The position numbers and the translations under genes are program-made. A stretch of 41,395 nt of DNA from Candidatus Saccharimonadales bacterium (lineage in GTDB: Bacteria > Patescibacteriota > Saccharimonadia > Saccharimonadales > JBGTET01), in NCBI GenBank assembly GCA_041747695.1, contig JBGTET010000012.1:1-41395 (forward strand), written 5' to 3'. Within the stretch, counting starts at the first letter, position 1; the number at the start of each line of letters is the position of its first letter. Below the pieces are notes generated by a model. The model was not told the origin of the DNA, ran no database searches, and was given only the letters and a program-made list of their open reading frames with translations. Shown in pieces: positions 848-36,297 of the stretch.

Positions 848-2113
848 ATGAATGAAGAAACAAAATACATAGATATTACCCCTCACAGAAGTATACTCAC
901 AAAAATCAGTCAGACAGGATACTCGATACAAGAAGCTTTATCGGAACTGATCGATAACGCTATTGACGCCAGAATAAGCGAAACTGTTTTAAACGTTTCA
1001 GTAGACATTTCTGCAGACTCGATAGTCGTGACTGACGATGGAACCGGCATGACGGAGGAACTGGCCAGTAAATCAATCCGACTGGGATTTTCAGAAAAAA
1101 AACAGCAACTCGGCGAGTTTGGGCTTGGATTAAAAACATCGACCTCATTTCTGGGACAGGGCTTCACTCTAACCACTTCGCCTAAAGGATCTGACGAAGA
1201 GTACGAGATAAATTATGACGCAGATGATTGGCTGGAAAATGGTGATTGGTACAAATATCCGTTTGTAGTCAGAAAAGGCATAGACACTAACAAGAGTGGA
1301 ACTAAAGTCGAAGTCCACAAGCTGAGAGTCCATATTACAGATAAGTTATTAGCGAGCATTAGGGAGGAATTTGGTCTACGATTTGGTCCATTCATTCAAA
1401 ACAAGGAACTTAATCTAATATTTAATGGCGAGCCATGTCCGCCATTTGTTCCATCTATACTTGATGACAAGAAAAACGAATTCTCATTTGATTTCCCAGG
1501 CGGTAAAGCTTGGGGGTGGTGGGGTTATCAATTAAGCGGACTAAACAAAAGCTATTATGGTTTTCACACGTATAGGCGCGGTCGATTAGTCACTACATAC
1601 GATAAAGTTGGGCTTACTCCAAACCAAGACATTAAACAAATAATCGGTGACTTGCATATCGAAGGCATCCCAATTAATCATGATAAAAAGAACTTTGCTA
1701 AAACTTCAGAGGGCTACCGAAGTATGGAAGATCAAATGCGGGTGTACTTTAAGCCATTTGAGAAAAAACCAAAACGAATACTGAGTGGATACGCAGCATC
1801 GGCAGGACGTGTCAGAGGTACGGTAAAAATGATCCGAACAACCGCACACAACACAGACATCCAAAAAGTGCTAGAAAACGTCAAGCATGGCGACATTATT
1901 GTTACAGAAATGACTAGACCTCAGTATCTGCTAGCCATAAGACGATCGGCCGGAATAATAACTAACCTAGGCGGAAATTTGTGTCACGCTGCAATTGTGT
2001 CACGTGAATTTAACATCCCTTGCGTGGTTGGAACCCAAAATGCTACCGACTTGCTGGTTGAAGGTAAAAAAGTAATCCTAGACGGAAATGACGGTTATAT
2101 TTATGAAGATTGA
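848..2113 (+). CDS. fusion protein: N-terminal GHKL (Bergerat-fold, MORC/MutL/Hsp90-type) ATPase plus C-terminal PEP-utilizer swivel phosphohistidine domain
   Basis: GHKL motifs are present: ELIDNAIDA (N box), DDGTGM (G1), GEFGLGLK (G2). The C-terminal ~110 aa carries the near-canonical swivel motif GGNLCHAAIVSREFNIPCVVG (His codon CAC at 1985-1987, residue 380) and ends ...ILDGNDGYIYED. Confidence 0.8.
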   Translation: MNEETKYIDITPHRSILTKISQTGYSIQEALSELIDNAIDARISETVLNVSVDISADSIVVTDDGTGMTEELASKSIRLGFSEKKQQLGEFGLGLKTSTSFLGQGFTLTTSPKGSDEEYEINYDADDWLENGDWYKYPFVVRKGIDTNKSGTKVEVHKLRVHITDKLLASIREEFGLRFGPFIQNKELNLIFNGEPCPPFVPSILDDKKNEFSFDFPGGKAWGWWGYQLSGLNKSYYGFHTYRRGRLVTTYDKVGLTPNQDIKQIIGDLHIEGIPINHDKKNFAKTSEGYRSMEDQMRVYFKPFEKKPKRILSGYAASAGRVRGTVKMIRTTAHNTDIQKVLENVKHGDIIVTEMTRPQYLLAIRRSAGIITNLGGNLCHAAIVSREFNIPCVVGTQNATDLLVEGKKVILDGNDGYIYED

Positions 2114-3260
2114 TGACCATGTACTAAAATTCCCAAAGTCGTTACCAAACGATGAGCAGGAATTCATGATCTACTATCCGTATAAGTTCCCTGCAGTAAT
2201 TGATTTTTACGAACAAAAGGCTCAAGAGTTATATGCAAATCCAGAAGGCTACGCTCAATTTGTTCAAGATGAATTTAAAGAACTCGAGGCTGCTGTAGAA
2301 AAGGTACGAGACGAGTTCGAGAATGGCAACAAAGATGACTTGGCATTTCTTGTTACGATAGATCAGAAATTCAATAAAATATTCTGTTTCAAATTTTGGG
2401 TTATAAACTATGTTTTCGCAGACGGTTTGATACATGAGTTTTATGTCGACCAGCTCAAAGCCTTTGCCAGAAAAATGGTAGATGTTGGTGACGACATCGA
2501 AGAATATGAACGTCGAATAATCCAGATCCAACGAGATTTGCTACAAACAGATTACGCCGACATATATTTGGTCCAAGCGCTTCATGGCGTTACCGTCATG
2601 AATTTTCTAGAGCAAGATGAATTTTCTAGAGATATAGTTAAAGAAATTGTTGCCCTAATTGATGAACACGACGACAAGAATAACGAAAAGATTATAGAGT
2701 TATGGAAACCAATCGTTGATAAAATTCTAGACCCTAACGACAACCACTACGGTCCACTCACTGACTACCCAGATGATTACGAGTTTAAGAATCTACTTGG
2801 CTTGCCACCTCTAGAGCTTCCGATTAATCAGGTTAGGATGCGCAAAATTCCTTTCCCACTGTATAGCTTCCTGAGTCACACTGTAGAGTTTCGTGAGCAG
2901 AACGTTGCGCTAACCGAGCGTCATAAGAATATGAAGGACACGATTGAGGAAATATTTGTCGAAGCCAAGGGTAAGATGGAGGAAGAGGAGTACTCAGACT
3001 TTAGGCTAGCGTACGAAATGGCCAAAAACTTTTCTATGTCCAAAGATCTTATGGGCAACGTAGATCCAATCTTGGTCCCAGTTTGGGAGGGTGACGTCCA
3101 TAAACGCATATACGAAATTTTATCCAAGGATAATAAAGTAAGGTATCCATCGGTAAGCCATGCGTCAATGTTTGGAAGCTTTGCATGGTACCTACCTGCG
3201 GATTTAAAAGCCCAGGTTATGTCGCCAGACAATACATCATTTAACTTTGAGGAGATTTAG
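2088..3260 (+). CDS. hypothetical acidic, probably helical protein (orphan member of the operon)
   Basis: 390-aa ORF overlapping the upstream stop. An alternative ATG at 2103 (MKIDDHVL...) gives an 11-nt overlap. I recognise no motif. It occupies the slot that a substrate-binding module would fill. Confidence 0.6.
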   Translation: MTVIFMKIDDHVLKFPKSLPNDEQEFMIYYPYKFPAVIDFYEQKAQELYANPEGYAQFVQDEFKELEAAVEKVRDEFENGNKDDLAFLVTIDQKFNKIFCFKFWVINYVFADGLIHEFYVDQLKAFARKMVDVGDDIEEYERRIIQIQRDLLQTDYADIYLVQALHGVTVMNFLEQDEFSRDIVKEIVALIDEHDDKNNEKIIELWKPIVDKILDPNDNHYGPLTDYPDDYEFKNLLGLPPLELPINQVRMRKIPFPLYSFLSHTVEFREQNVALTERHKNMKDTIEEIFVEAKGKMEEEEYSDFRLAYEMAKNFSMSKDLMGNVDPILVPVWEGDVHKRIYEILSKDNKVRYPSVSHASMFGSFAWYLPADLKAQVMSPDNTSFNFEEI

Positions 3261-3262
3261 CA

Positions 3263-4054
3263 ATGAGCGGAGAACAACAATTAGCACCTATGTCGGGCGG
3301 CAGAATGGAAATGCGAGTCCAGCGTCACGATGATCATGTCGAGGGACACTTAACACCTGAAGGACACGAACATGCAAAGCAGGTAGCAACCGAAGTAGTT
3401 AATGAATACTTGGATGCGAATTCTGATACTCATTTTATGGTTATTTGTTCAGACCAAATTTGGGATGAAAATGAACCAGACTTGGGCGGAGTGCGTGCAA
3501 AAGAAACAGCTAAAGATATCACCGAGACGATAAAAGATGCGCTTTTCGAAAGAGGTTTGCCAGCTGATCAATTATTTGGAAGCACCGGTGACGATGCAGA
3601 TGAAGGTGATGTAACAGTTAGCCCAGTCTTACGCGAAGCAAATATTTTCTCAAATAAGTTCATGCAACATCTTAGGGAGACGTACCCCGATGACAATGCT
3701 TGGAGTTTGTATTATCAAGACCAAGATGCCGACACTAGGAGAGAGAAGCACGCCGAGAGTCCTCATGATTTGGCGAGGCGCATGGACTATATGATCAAAA
3801 CTGCCGAAATGGTTGGAGCTTCTTTACACAGAACACCAGGCAAAGAGGACTCGCCACTGCTTGTGTGGGTAGTTGGTCATGGTGGCGGATTAGATTCGTA
3901 CTTGCATCATTATGCCGATGTCCCATTAGAAGAACTTGGTTTCGAACTTAGCGGAGGCTTTACCCTAAAAGCATCGTCAGAACATGGAGTTGTGGCAGAC
4001 GTTAAGGGCAAAGAATATCCTATTAGATCAGATGAGACAATGAGCCTTCCGTAA
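3263..4054 (+). CDS. histidine phosphatase superfamily-like protein (divergent, with acidic insertion)
   Basis: VQRHDDHVEGHLTPEGHEHAKQVA (RHG-like RHD), ICSDQ...VRAKETA, and VWVVGHGGGLDSYL (second His). GAGGAG Shine-Dalgarno sequence 8-13 nt upstream, inside the preceding gene. Starts 2 nt after the upstream stop. Confidence 0.6.
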   Translation: MSGEQQLAPMSGGRMEMRVQRHDDHVEGHLTPEGHEHAKQVATEVVNEYLDANSDTHFMVICSDQIWDENEPDLGGVRAKETAKDITETIKDALFERGLPADQLFGSTGDDADEGDVTVSPVLREANIFSNKFMQHLRETYPDDNAWSLYYQDQDADTRREKHAESPHDLARRMDYMIKTAEMVGASLHRTPGKEDSPLLVWVVGHGGGLDSYLHHYADVPLEELGFELSGGFTLKASSEHGVVADVKGKEYPIRSDETMSLP

Positions 4055-4881
4055 TGAGCTTTGTAAAGTTCTTCGAAGACGTTAACGTAGACGACCTTAG
4101 TCTCGTTGGAGGTAAGGGTCTTTCGCTAGGTAGAATGATCAACGCCGGAATTCCTGTACCGTCAGGTTTTGTCATTACAACAAAGTTACATGAGGAATTT
4201 AAGAATAATGGCGAAATTACTGAGCAGACTATTGTTGAGCTAAACGATGCATTTGATAAATTGGGTGCTGAACGTGTTGCGGTACGCTCATCGGCTATAT
4301 CCGAGGATTCAGAAACTGCATCATGGGCTGGACAGTTTGAAAGTTACCTAAATGTTGGCAGAAACGACTTAATTGCCAGATTAAAGGATTGTTGGGATTC
4401 TGTTAAGGCAGCGAGCGACTATGCACAGACACAGGGCATGAAGCAAGAAGATCTTGTCTTGGGAGTAGTTGTACAGAAAATGGTAGACAGTGATGTTTCT
4501 GGTGTCGCGTTTAGCGTGAATCCGATCAGCCACAATTCTGATGAAATAATGATAGAAGCAACCTATGGGCTCGGAGAACTGCTAGTCCAAGGTATGGTTA
4601 CGCCTGACAACTATGTAACGTCAAAAAGTGGGGGCAACACAATAAACAAAAATATTGCAGTAAAAAAAACTAGGCTAATTTATAAAGACAGCGACACCGT
4701 GGAAGCACCTGTAGATGCGAGTATGCAAGAAGAAGCCTGCTTATCAGAAAAACAACTTGTCGAACTAAGCCTGCTAATTTGTCGAATCGAAGATTATTAC
4801 GGCAGTCCGCAAGACATTGAGTGGGCTCTACAAGATAATGAATTCCATATAGTACAATCTAGGCCAATAACGACATCTTAA
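4054..4881 (+). CDS. stand-alone PPDK_N-type ATP-grasp (PEP/pyruvate-binding-family nucleotide-binding) domain protein
   Basis: VGGKGLSLGRM, GIPVPSGFVIT, VAVRSSAISEDSETASWAGQFESYLNV, VVVQKMV, GVAFSVNP and QDIEWA..IVQSRPIT. The protein stops where the swivel and substrate domains would follow in PpsA/PPDK/RPH. The start overlaps the upstream stop (TAATG). Confidence 0.85.
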   Translation: MSFVKFFEDVNVDDLSLVGGKGLSLGRMINAGIPVPSGFVITTKLHEEFKNNGEITEQTIVELNDAFDKLGAERVAVRSSAISEDSETASWAGQFESYLNVGRNDLIARLKDCWDSVKAASDYAQTQGMKQEDLVLGVVVQKMVDSDVSGVAFSVNPISHNSDEIMIEATYGLGELLVQGMVTPDNYVTSKSGGNTINKNIAVKKTRLIYKDSDTVEAPVDASMQEEACLSEKQLVELSLLICRIEDYYGSPQDIEWALQDNEFHIVQSRPITTS

Positions 4882-4887
4882 ACATGT

Positions 4888-5154
4888 ATGAAGCATCTAA
4901 GCATAACTCTGACCGGTAAAGTTCAACGCATAGGAATGCGATACAAAATAATGGAATACGCCGAATTGAATAACCTTCGCGGCTATACGCGAAATCTACG
5001 GGACGGTAATGTTTACATTGAAGTCGAAGGAGATGGCCCAGTTATTGATAAATTTCTGGAATGGCTAAAATCTAGTCCCGGTCTTTCGGAGGTTAAAAAT
5101 TTAGAAACAACTGAAGGGACTATCCGGCACTTCAGAGATTTTCAGGTATTTTAG
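4888..5154 (+). CDS. acylphosphatase
   Basis: 88 aa. LTGKVQRIGMRYK...LRGYTRNLRDGNVYIEVEGDG matches the V.G.VQGVGFR / G.V.N..DG.VE pattern, with the catalytic Arg and Asn retained. Confidence 0.8.
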   Translation: MKHLSITLTGKVQRIGMRYKIMEYAELNNLRGYTRNLRDGNVYIEVEGDGPVIDKFLEWLKSSPGLSEVKNLETTEGTIRHFRDFQVF

Positions 5155-9480: not shown

Positions 9481-9556
9481 TGGTGGGGCAGGTTGGATTT
9501 GAACCAACGGCCAATCAGTTATGAGCCGACTGCTCTAACCACTGAGCTACTGCCCC
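9481..9556 (-). tRNA. tRNA with CAT anticodon (elongator Met, or Ile2 if lysidine-modified)
   Basis: Hand-folded 76-nt cloverleaf: GGGGCAG-TA-GCTC-AGTGGTTA-GAGC-A-GTCGG-CTCATAA-CTGAT-TGGCC-GTTGG-TTCAAAT-CCAAC-CTGCCCC-A-CCA. It lacks the three G:C pairs of initiator tRNAs. Confidence 0.85.
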
Positions 9557-36222: not shown

Positions 36223-36297
36223 TCCGGAGTAGCTCAATGGTAGAGCACATCGCTGTTAACGATGGGGTTGCCGGTTCGAGCCCGGCCTCCGGAGCCA
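36223..36297 (+). tRNA. tRNA-Asn (GTT)
   Basis: TCCGGAG-TA-GCTC-AATGGTA-GAGC-A-CATCG-CTGTTAA-CGATG-GGGTT-GCCGG-TTCGAGC-CCGGC-CTCCGGA-G-CCA. Confidence 0.9.

Follow-up and report, generated by a model that had tools for sequence, protein, structure and literature searches.

A MORC-type ATPase fused to a phosphohistidine swivel domain in a conserved gene cassette of Patescibacteria and gut Firmicutes

Domain structure of the MORC-swivel protein

Contig JBGTET010000012.1 of Candidatus Saccharimonadales bacterium (assembly GCA_041747695.1; all 41,395 nucleotides, hereafter the window) belongs to the chromosome of a Saccharimonadia-like member of the Patescibacteria and carries genes for a Mur ligase, a class II aminoacyl-tRNA synthetase, and tRNAs. 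Near its start lies a gene whose product combines a GHKL ATPase with a phosphohistidine swivel domain (hereafter MORC-swivel). Four genes follow on the same strand, overlapping or 2‒6 nucleotides apart, and the cassette is translationally coupled. They encode an all-α protein without detectable relatives (hereafter the orphan partner), a histidine-phosphatase-like protein, an ATP-grasp protein, and an acylphosphatase (Table 1). The fusion had been proposed from the nucleotide sequence alone (hereafter the original prediction), and it is real: the open reading frame (ORF), Pfam matches, alignments with PDB sequences, and an AlphaFold2 model all place both modules in one chain.

Table 1 Features of the MORC-swivel cassette in the window
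Feature	Position	Strand	Evidence
MORC-swivel gene, 421 aa: GHKL ATPase, S5 transducer, and phosphohistidine swivel domain	848..2113	+	ORF, Pfam, AlphaFold2, Foldseek
Bergerat-fold nucleotide-binding core, residues 25‒125	920..1222	+	Pfam HATPase_c_3, 6.1e-18
S5-domain-2-like transducer, residues 227‒297	1526..1738	+	Pfam Morc6_S5, 5.4e-7
PEP-utilizers swivel domain, residues 346‒416	1883..2095	+	Pfam PF00391, 2.7e-24
Codon of His380, predicted phosphocarrier histidine in GGNLCHAAIVSR	1985..1987	+	Translation
Orphan all-α partner, 390 aa from ATG 2088 or 385 aa from ATG 2103 ('MKID...')	2088..3260	+	
Divergent histidine-phosphatase-superfamily protein, 263 aa	3263..4054	+	His_Phos_1, 1e-6
Stand-alone PPDK_N ATP-grasp protein, 275 aa, predicted His380 charger	4054..4881	+	PPDK_N, 6.3e-75
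Acylphosphatase, 88 aa, sub-clade accessory	4888..5154	+	Acylphosphatase, 1.7e-18

In MORC-swivel, a MORC-type ATPase with its S5 transducer forms residues 1‒305 and a PpsA-type swivel forms residues ~306‒421. The three GHKL motifs lie where they had been predicted, at residues 33‒41 (ELIDNAIDA), 62‒68 (DDGTGM), and 89‒96 (GEFGLGLK), and the near-consensus swivel motif GGNLCHAAIVSREFNIPCVVG occupies residues 375‒395; these matches exceed chance by far. HATPase_c scores lower than HATPase_c_3 on the ATPase core, and the Morc6_S5 match reaches 30.2 bits against a Pfam cut-off of 26.2. The stretch of about 200 residues that the original prediction described as a β-rich linker (GWWGY...) is not a linker and consists of the rest of the Bergerat fold and the S5-like transducer.

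The AlphaFold2 model, built on 56 homologues, has a predicted local distance difference test score (pLDDT) of 83.5 and a predicted template modelling score (pTM) of 0.72, and the ATP lid (residues 80‒93) is its sole low-confidence or disordered segment. A Foldseek comparison of this model with the PDB places the ATPase modules of MORC3, MORC4, and MORC2 at the top (E values of 4.6e-17 to 1e-14), followed by SMCHD1 and Hsp90/TRAP1. The three MORC matches cover the S5 region, and in the comparison of PDB sequences MORC3 aligns with residues 29‒104.

The C-terminal part belongs to the swivel domains of dikinases. The PpsA structure 8a8e aligns with residues 309‒420 (E value of 5.8e-19), pairing GGNLCHAAIVSRE with GGRTSHAAIVSRE and placing His380 on the catalytic His of PpsA. 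The NCBIfam model of PpsA matches residues 304‒421 at 3.1e-31, which is sub-threshold, and the models of RPH, PRK06241, and PRK08296 match only from residues ~295‒312 onward; homology to the PpsA/RPH models, linker included, begins at residues ~304‒312. Since the pLDDT is mostly 84‒92 across residues 300‒421, the confident model joins the sequence and profile matches in identifying residues ~306‒421 as a PpsA-type swivel, as had been proposed for residues 310‒421. The swivel consensus is GGX(T)(S/C)HAA(I/V)(I/V)(A/S)R (PMC12167813), which GGNLCHAAIVSR fits except at the regulatory Thr, the target of PSRP/PDRP in PEP synthase and PPDK. The corresponding residue, two positions before His380, is Leu378, and it is invariant in the 56 homologues.

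Both modules look catalytically competent, because the motif residues of the ATPase and the swivel are invariant in the 56 aligned homologues. These comprise E33, N37, and D40 of motif I, D63 and G67 of motif II (D63xGxG67), G80, S82, K84, and G89-E-F-G-x-G94 of the ATP lid, G151 of motif IV (T152 is at least 90% conserved), and H278-D-K-K281 of the S5 module, in which either K280 or K281 would be the catalytic Lys. The invariant swivel motif is G375-G-x-L-x-H380-A-A-I...R386-E-F; His380, whose conservation the original prediction had made a point of, is the same in 56 of 56 homologues. Among the three domains, conservation is highest in the swivel, with 62‒65% identity. G-x-S-x-K is the MORC-type lid signature known from work on S87 of MORC2 (PDB entry 9cdg is titled 'ATPase dead mutant - S87A'). 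With its Bergerat motifs, S5 transducer, and lid signature, MORC-swivel carries in its sequence the features of GHL/MORC membership.

Conservation and variation of the cassette

A homologue search over 5.8 billion proteins gave 549 matches. The best 120 clusters are 53‒100% identical to the window protein and ~420 residues long, only a few entries being shorter (326‒404 residues, truncated or partial); among these 120 clusters, the GHKL module is present in all and the swivel in all except the two shortest, truncated entries (326 and 331 residues, one of them labelled 'partial'). The family, found in Patescibacteria and in metagenome-assembled genomes (MAGs) of gut Firmicutes, amounts to 77 loci and over 100 sequence clusters, and one 90% cluster alone holds 613 member sequences on 244 contigs from human-gut Firmicutes. 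Loci, designated L002 and so on, were gathered from species-representative genomes (28) and metagenomes (50) with two conserved peptide patterns, which very divergent relatives may escape, and the taxonomic labels of MAGs were used as recorded.

The distribution is patchy, with MORC-swivel in 28 of 185,579 species representatives. Named hosts from the candidate phyla radiation are of the Saccharimonadia/Saccharibacteria, Nomura-, Buchanan-, Vogel-, Kuenen-, and Paceibacteria types, and the locus nearest to that of the window (94% identical) is from a Saccharimonadia MAG. The named gut hosts are 'Clostridia/Clostridium sp.' MAGs, whose loci are flanked by SpoIID and M23 peptidase genes. Across the loci, GC content varies between 0.26 and 0.47 and follows the host. 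L002, L006, L025, and L027 come from MAGs labelled Burkholderiaceae or Gammaproteobacteria, with cassettes 52‒84% identical to that of the window on contigs of 0.32‒0.43 GC, which may mean that the contigs were binned or labelled wrongly, or that the cassette was transferred. To test for an origin in phages, plasmids, or mobile elements, viral contigs, phage genomes, and plasmids were searched, and no family member was found.

The architecture belongs to no characterised enzyme family, as far as open-access papers, bioRxiv, Pfam/NCBIfam, and PADLOC cover it: the NCBIfam matches are sub-threshold, and the source names are only 'ATP-binding protein', 'PEP-utilizing enzyme', and 'phosphohistidine swiveling domain-containing protein'. 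Selective reading of a survey of prokaryotic MORCs (PMC2292703) and of the paraMORC paper (PMC8011034) likewise turned up no GHKL-swivel architecture. None of the three outcomes named as refuting the original prediction was seen. GHKL/MORC ATPases and phosphohistidine-swivel dikinases are each well studied, and we found no report that couples the two physically.

The genes downstream of MORC-swivel are conserved with it. Co-occurrence was counted where the sequence continues for at least 4.5 kb downstream, which holds for 30 loci. The orphan partner follows directly in all 30 (and in 28/28 genome loci), the ATP-grasp gene is present in 29, and the histidine-phosphatase-like gene in 27, if the remote sister family 'fam 9/13' (hhalign probability of 94.7% against the window family) is included. 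The ATP-grasp gene had been singled out by the original prediction as a protein to test with the ATPase, and it proves to be a conserved neighbour; the orphan partner and the histidine-phosphatase-like gene had gone unmentioned. Among 21 non-redundant loci, the pairwise divergences of MORC-swivel, partner, and ATP-grasp protein correlate with Spearman ρ of 0.67 and 0.59, the pairs being non-independent. MORC-swivel evolves most slowly (61% mean pairwise identity versus 45‒46%), which fits a hub that contacts all partners, and the histidine-phosphatase-like protein evolves fastest (21‒27% identity between clades). The components are acidic except for the S5 and swivel domains. Window positions 1‒6200, scanned for consensus promoters and terminators, gave fewer matches than shuffled sequence.

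The ORF of the orphan partner overlaps the stop codon of MORC-swivel (TGA 2111‒2113), and of its two candidate starts ATG 2103 is more likely. Its AlphaFold2 model is a confident all-α fold of 19 helices (pLDDT 88.5, pTM 0.81), for which Foldseek found no significant match in the PDB (best E value of 1.2, template modelling score at most 0.19) and none among viral predicted structures. A profile search of PDB sequences came back empty, and there was no match in Pfam, NCBIfam, or PADLOC. An exhaustive profile search of 1.84 billion representatives retrieved 44 proteins, all of the partner's own family and none fused to another domain. The protein (isoelectric point 4.6) has about 50 invariant residues, many of them polar, such as D112, H116, R128, K129, R149, D150, H264, E267, K319, and D320. 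We considered whether it might be a rifampicin-binding domain of RPH supplied in trans; this we reject, since no PDB match arose although the RPH structures 5fbs and 5hv1 were in the library. Kinship with other carrier families was likewise negative by hhalign.

The histidine-phosphatase-like protein scores 29 bits with His_Phos_1 (Pfam cut-off 21.7). Its catalytic core, R21-H22, R78, and H206-G207, is invariant in 17‒21 sequences, and the candidate proton donors E81, E125, and E165 are each at least 85% conserved. The nearest solved relative is 3eoz (5.8e-9), a Plasmodium 'putative phosphoglycerate mutase'. A second, canonical histidine-phosphatase gene (window 256‒801, minus strand; His_Phos_1, 3.9e-30) is oriented divergently 46 nucleotides from the start of MORC-swivel, and tblastn found its homologue at one other locus only, L039.

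The ATP-grasp gene overlaps the stop of the preceding gene by 1 nucleotide. Its product is matched by only the N-terminal ~310 residues of the NCBIfam models of PpsA, RPH, and RedH, and its invariant residues include GGK19‒21 together with R78, D254/E256, and Q268/R270/T273 (GGK and the metal- and nucleotide-binding residues). The acylphosphatase gene, 6 nucleotides further on, stands at the same place in L035, L036, and L046 with ~50% identity; it is ruled out as a core component, being confined to four related loci, the sub-clade that includes the window. The phosphocarrier of the window is thus surrounded by two His_Phos_1 genes and an acylphosphatase gene.

Some cassettes contain additional swivel proteins alongside a single ATP-grasp gene: three in L024 and one each in L025, L027, L007, L010, L033, L047, and L071. 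In L024 (6089‒13037), four swivel-bearing proteins, MORC-swivel and three carriers of 355‒407 residues, share one ATP-grasp gene. The extra carriers align with the models of RPH, PigC, and PRK06241 well upstream of the swivel (residues 133‒354 of an L024 carrier with PigC 657‒881, and residues 237‒497 of the L010 carrier with PRK06241.1-4 629‒867), and therefore retain part of an RPH-type acceptor domain, which the window MORC-swivel does not have. By homology, such a carrier and the ATP-grasp protein form an ordinary HpeHI-like split dikinase. In L008 (4934‒7243) and L011 (6675‒8678), an ATP-grasp domain is fused to a middle region of ~230 residues and its own swivel (769 and 667 residues), which is by its domain content an RPH-like architecture without a TIM barrel. 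The extra carriers of fam 8 and fam 15 were examined as paralogues of the MORC module or the partner and rejected, the hhalign similarity being in the swivel region only; no relatives of their N-termini exist among PDB sequences. In L012 (3962‒6681, a Parcubacteria MAG), the cassette is preceded by a RhuM/Fic-domain gene and a PPDK_N...swivel ORF, whose ATP-grasp part appears divided between two ORFs, possibly by a frameshift.

A proposed split-dikinase mechanism and its alternatives

The cassette resembles the split dikinases HpeHI, CreHI, and PpsAB(C). As in these systems, a separate PPDK_N ATP-grasp subunit accompanies a second subunit with a C-terminal swivel and a GGxx(S/C)HAA motif, a phosphoenolpyruvate (PEP)/pyruvate TIM barrel is lacking, and the predicted chemistry runs from the β-phosphate of ATP through His to an acceptor (PMC12167813). 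In HpeHI, CreHI, PpsAB, and RPH, the ATP-grasp domain presents ATP, the swivel His attacks the β-phosphate while the γ-phosphate is hydrolysed, and the phosphoryl group travels as His~P to a second site, which belongs to the subunit with the swivel. Both the separation of the ATP-grasp subunit and the place of the swivel, C-terminal to an acceptor-binding domain, are biochemically established for HpeHI, CreHI, and PpsAB (PMC12167813). The original prediction called the fusion unusual and noted that swivel domains normally shuttle between two active sites within their own enzyme. The fusion to an ATPase does hold, but it is not an isolated oddity: since swivels acting in trans are already known, the system is best seen as a variant of the split dikinases, one that is undescribed, real, conserved, and biochemically coherent.

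The differences from the known split dikinases begin with the domain to which the swivel is joined. HpeH and PpsA combine it with an acceptor domain of the RPH type (rifampicin-binding-like), whereas MORC-swivel combines it with a MORC GHKL-S5 ATPase whose own ATP site is intact. HpeHI, CreHI, and PpsAB lack the orphan all-α and histidine-phosphatase-like proteins of this cassette, and, unlike theirs, this cassette is not linked to aromatic-catabolism genes. The single-chain RPH and the PigC/RedH-type ligases (ATP-grasp, central domain, swivel) have ATP-grasp and swivel modules like those encoded here, as the NCBIfam matches at both ends indicate, but MORC-swivel shares only the linker and swivel with them (from residue ~305), and the central domain of RPH does not resemble the orphan partner in the Foldseek comparison.

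Other relatives clarify what the protein is and is not. MORC2, MORC3, MORC4, and the prokaryotic MORCs of restriction–modification and Mza systems (Iyer et al. 2008, PMC2292703) share with it Bergerat motifs I‒IV, the G-x-S-x-K lid, and an S5 module with a conserved Lys, and MORC and paraMORC proteins also have the conserved N-terminal segment ahead of motif I. In contrast to these families, MORC-swivel has no coiled-coil, CW domain, or helicase, nuclease, or restriction–modification partner, its C-terminus is a phosphohistidine carrier, and its sequence conservation is much above what is typical of them. Enzyme I of the PEP-dependent phosphotransferase system, which was among the matches, has a homologous swivel that hands the phosphoryl group to a separate protein, HPr, and thereby shows that relays between proteins can run through swivel domains. 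However, Enzyme I is charged by PEP at a TIM barrel and not by an ATP-grasp protein, and no HPr or EII homologues are present here. No PEP/pyruvate TIM-barrel domain (PEP-utilizers_C) was found in any cassette gene scanned, and the system is therefore not a PEP synthase, whatever some source names suggest; with the regulatory Thr also missing and PpsA/PPDK scores of 108 against an NCBIfam cut-off of 598, identity with PEP synthase, PPDK, or Enzyme I is ruled out. Histidine kinases likewise combine a Bergerat-fold ATP site and a phosphorylatable His in one polypeptide. Their His is borne by HisKA/DHp or HPt domains, whereas MORC-swivel has it on a PpsA-type swivel and joins it to a GHL/MORC-type ATPase that has an S5 Lys. 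Pfam detects neither HisKA/DHp nor HPt in MORC-swivel, whose only conserved candidate His is on the swivel, and this rules out a histidine kinase.

In the reading that we propose, MORC-swivel serves as phosphocarrier in a split, multi-component dikinase of the PpsA/RPH/HpeHI type, and the MORC ATPase replaces the acceptor-binding domain; we give this reading about an even chance. The MORC module seems to hold the position of the acceptor domain because MORC-swivel matches the split-dikinase models only from residue ~305. In the proposed cycle, the ATP-grasp protein would bind ATP and transfer the β-phosphate to His380 in trans through a pyrophosphoryl intermediate, with release of AMP and inorganic phosphate (Pi), in the way that HpeI and PpsB serve HpeH and PpsA. 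That the ATP-grasp protein charges His380 is probable, given its homology and the conservation of the operon. The swivel would then move on the linker at residues ~305‒320 and bring the phosphoryl group to a site made by the GHKL-S5 module and the all-α partner, where it would be passed to an acceptor, the ATP-hydrolysis cycle of the MORC module gating or driving the transfer. The histidine-phosphatase-like protein may strip phosphate from His380 or from the product and so make the system reversible, and in the sub-clade of the window an acylphosphatase would be added.

Transfer onward to an acceptor at the MORC/partner module, as opposed to an end-state switch, follows from domain position only and seems to us evenly poised. 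We favour it because phosphohistidine is an intermediate in all characterised relatives, because the MORC module holds the acceptor-domain position, and because MORC-swivel behaves as a constrained hub. Delivery of phosphate and phospho-regulation of the ATPase, the two options of the original prediction, are the leading models, and the data weakly favour delivery. As the acceptor, we would place an adenine nucleotide in the Bergerat pocket before a hydroxyl-bearing small molecule, and the latter before a macromolecule captured by the clamp; any one of these, taken singly, is unlikely.

Several points weigh against the carrier reading. The Bergerat site retains every residue for ATP hydrolysis (E33, N37, D63, the S82/K84 lid, and K281). 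The MORC module is therefore more than a passive ligand-binding domain, and a simple carrier model leaves its own use of ATP unexplained. The orphan partner offers no functional clue. A dedicated phosphatase suits a regulatory switch at least equally well, and the case for the MORC module in place of an acceptor domain is positional, not structural.

The reaction of histidine kinases, ATP + His ↔ ADP + His~P, is reversible. The retained ATP-hydrolysis residues motivate a form of the carrier model in which His380~P, charged at the ATP-grasp protein, re-phosphorylates ADP held in the closed Bergerat pocket, as in the reverse half-reaction of a histidine kinase. This form is doubtful in our view. 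If it were true, the dikinase/phosphatase pair, and not nucleotide exchange, would set the ATP/ADP state of the MORC clamp and its effect on the partner or client, which would be a new control principle for GHKL ATPases and the first dikinase with a protein-bound nucleotide as acceptor. A close alternative is a 'polymer, water dikinase' that would phosphorylate a macromolecule held by the clamp. The reverse flow, in which the Bergerat site would phosphorylate His380 and ATP would be made at the ATP-grasp protein, is by our own reasoning thermodynamically untenable, as it amounts to net conversion of AMP + Pi to ADP without energy input.

In the most serious competitor of onward transfer, His380~P is itself the end state: the ATP-grasp protein would be the kinase and the histidine-phosphatase-like protein the phosphatase of the swivel, and the phosphorylated swivel would dock on or release the ATP lid or the dimer interface, turning the MORC clamp on or off, with the all-α partner as effector or client. 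We hold such a switch to be possible, if on the unlikely side. Its main argument is that the ATP-hydrolysis residues of the Bergerat site are all kept, which would give the fully intact ATPase its own energy source; a complete set of kinase, phosphatase, target, and partner is conserved, and the phosphatase-like protein evolves fastest, as regulators often do. The pyruvate kinase of B. subtilis is reportedly under allosteric regulation. A swivel-type domain, regulatory rather than catalytic, stands at the C-terminus of the unrelated Bacillus-type pyruvate kinase (matches to PDB 2e28 and 3t05), but that domain has no cognate ATP-grasp partner, whereas here a dedicated ATP-grasp gene is conserved. 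Against the switch, phosphohistidine is a transfer intermediate in every characterised system of ATP-grasp and swivel (PMC12167813), the expanded cassettes hold RPH-like carriers that are catalytic by homology, and the phosphatase-like gene is missing from 3 of the 30 complete loci. The same pyruvate kinase domain shows that swivel-like domains without a known transfer role exist, and the swivel of MORC-swivel might accordingly be regarded as a vestigial or structural appendage next to an incidental ATP-grasp gene. Nothing specific speaks for this, and the invariance of His380 and of the whole motif GGxLCHAAIxxREFxIP, the highest conservation among the three domains, and an ATP-grasp gene in nearly all loci that diverges together with MORC-swivel make it very improbable.

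Two further proposals concern the biological role and are compatible with, or part of, the models above. A defence system against phages or mobile elements could be built on the MORC ATPase, as in Mza or the paraMORC/restriction–modification-linked systems, with a phosphotransfer module, acting as carrier or switch, that detects infection or alters the nucleic acid or nucleotides of the invader. The closest relatives that the MORC module has without a swivel (~24% identity) come from plasmids, and their neighbours are either an Mza-type set (Z1, PD-(D/E)XK, and AIPR genes) with Dcm/Vsr beside it or genes related to helicases. PADLOC gives only weak matches to the ATPase core (MzaB, TmtA, and type II REase), and MzaB models score 44.7 bits, far short of their cut-off of 850. 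The patchy distribution also fits, as does the self-contained nature of the cassette, which stands at varying chromosomal places and now and then has a recombinase, a T4 coupling protein, or RhuM/Fic as its neighbour. However, although the N-terminal two-thirds of the protein is a bona fide MORC-type ATPase, the partners of conflict-type MORCs are absent: no helicase, nuclease, methylase, Z1, AIPR, or other usual effector was found in 77 loci. The flanks vary by lineage and are mostly housekeeping genes, no family member appeared in viral, phage, or plasmid collections, the conservation is unusually high for a defence ATPase, the GC content tracks the host, and the components, with the partner as an example, are acidic, so that we consider defence unlikely. 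The Bergerat pocket is a classic binding site for natural products, and in a specific sub-case of the split-dikinase reading this pocket or the orphan partner would bind a hydroxyl-bearing xenobiotic or antibiotic to be phosphorylated by His380~P, on the model of RPH with rifampicin and HpeHI with phenols. RPH-like carriers reside in some cassettes, and in 22 loci of gut Firmicutes the gene immediately upstream, in divergent orientation, encodes an AraC regulator that has a GyrI-like/Cass2 small-molecule-binding domain (for example, L013:6072‒6890, minus strand). In L066, whose MORC-swivel is 57% identical to those of gut Firmicutes, an ORF with only the GyrI-like part (1971‒2474, plus strand; 45% identical) precedes the cassette. 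All characterised ATP-grasp/swivel enzymes without a TIM barrel act on small molecules (PMC12167813). This substrate class is nevertheless improbable, as the invariant catalytic Glu, Mg-binding Asn, and S5 Lys favour nucleotide chemistry over mere ligand binding, the regulator is limited to Firmicute loci, and no transporter or catabolic genes are linked.

The union of a MORC clamp with an ATP-grasp charger of its own, a matching protein of the phosphatase family, and a confidently folded protein without detectable relatives implies a phosphotransfer logic outside current models of either family. Should the MORC module be where the phosphoryl group is handed over, the acceptors of dikinases would reach beyond pyruvate, phenols, antibiotics, and glucans; should the group gate the ATPase instead, this would be, to our knowledge, the first phosphohistidine-controlled GHL clamp. 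Since the four proteins are soluble, acidic, and without membrane parts, reconstitution should be easy. For conserved 'dark matter' genes, both in Patescibacteria and in the abundant uncultured Firmicutes of the human gut, the cassette offers a rare and concrete point of access for biochemistry.

Neighbouring genes and other features of the window

Neighbours with roles in nucleotide or phosphate metabolism (MazG, deoxyribosyltransferase-like, NUDIX-HAD, Ppx/GppA, and PfkB) each occur in one locus or lineage. In the window, a nucleoside 2-deoxyribosyltransferase-like gene (5132‒5569, minus strand), which overlaps the 3' end of the acylphosphatase gene, and a gene for a MazG-type NTP pyrophosphohydrolase (5571‒5879, minus strand) converge with the end of the cassette; neither is conserved beside the cassette elsewhere.

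Two genes further along the minus strand (5951‒6520 and 8808‒9416) encode paralogous small proteins with near-identical N-terminal membrane anchors, MFKKNQKGVIDPVFVIVLVLVLAVGGFVYWR and MFKRNQKGVIDPIFIIVLVLVLAVGGFIYWR, and differing acidic C-terminal regions. Two divergent tRNA-Met (CAT) genes, at 9481‒9556 (minus strand) and 10047‒10121 (plus strand), lie ~500 nucleotides apart. An IS1595-family transposase gene (11820‒12731) stands beside a gene for a Replic_Relax-domain protein (12852‒13700), and on the opposite strand after the latter are two ORFs of 380 residues (13877‒15019) and 693 residues (14940‒17021) without a Pfam match. At 36223‒38976, a tRNA-Asn gene (36223‒36297) overlaps the 3' end of a large serine recombinase gene (36256‒37788, minus strand), which is followed by a gene for a Phage_CRI-like replication protein (37822‒38976, minus strand); this region looks like a small integrated element at a tRNA gene.

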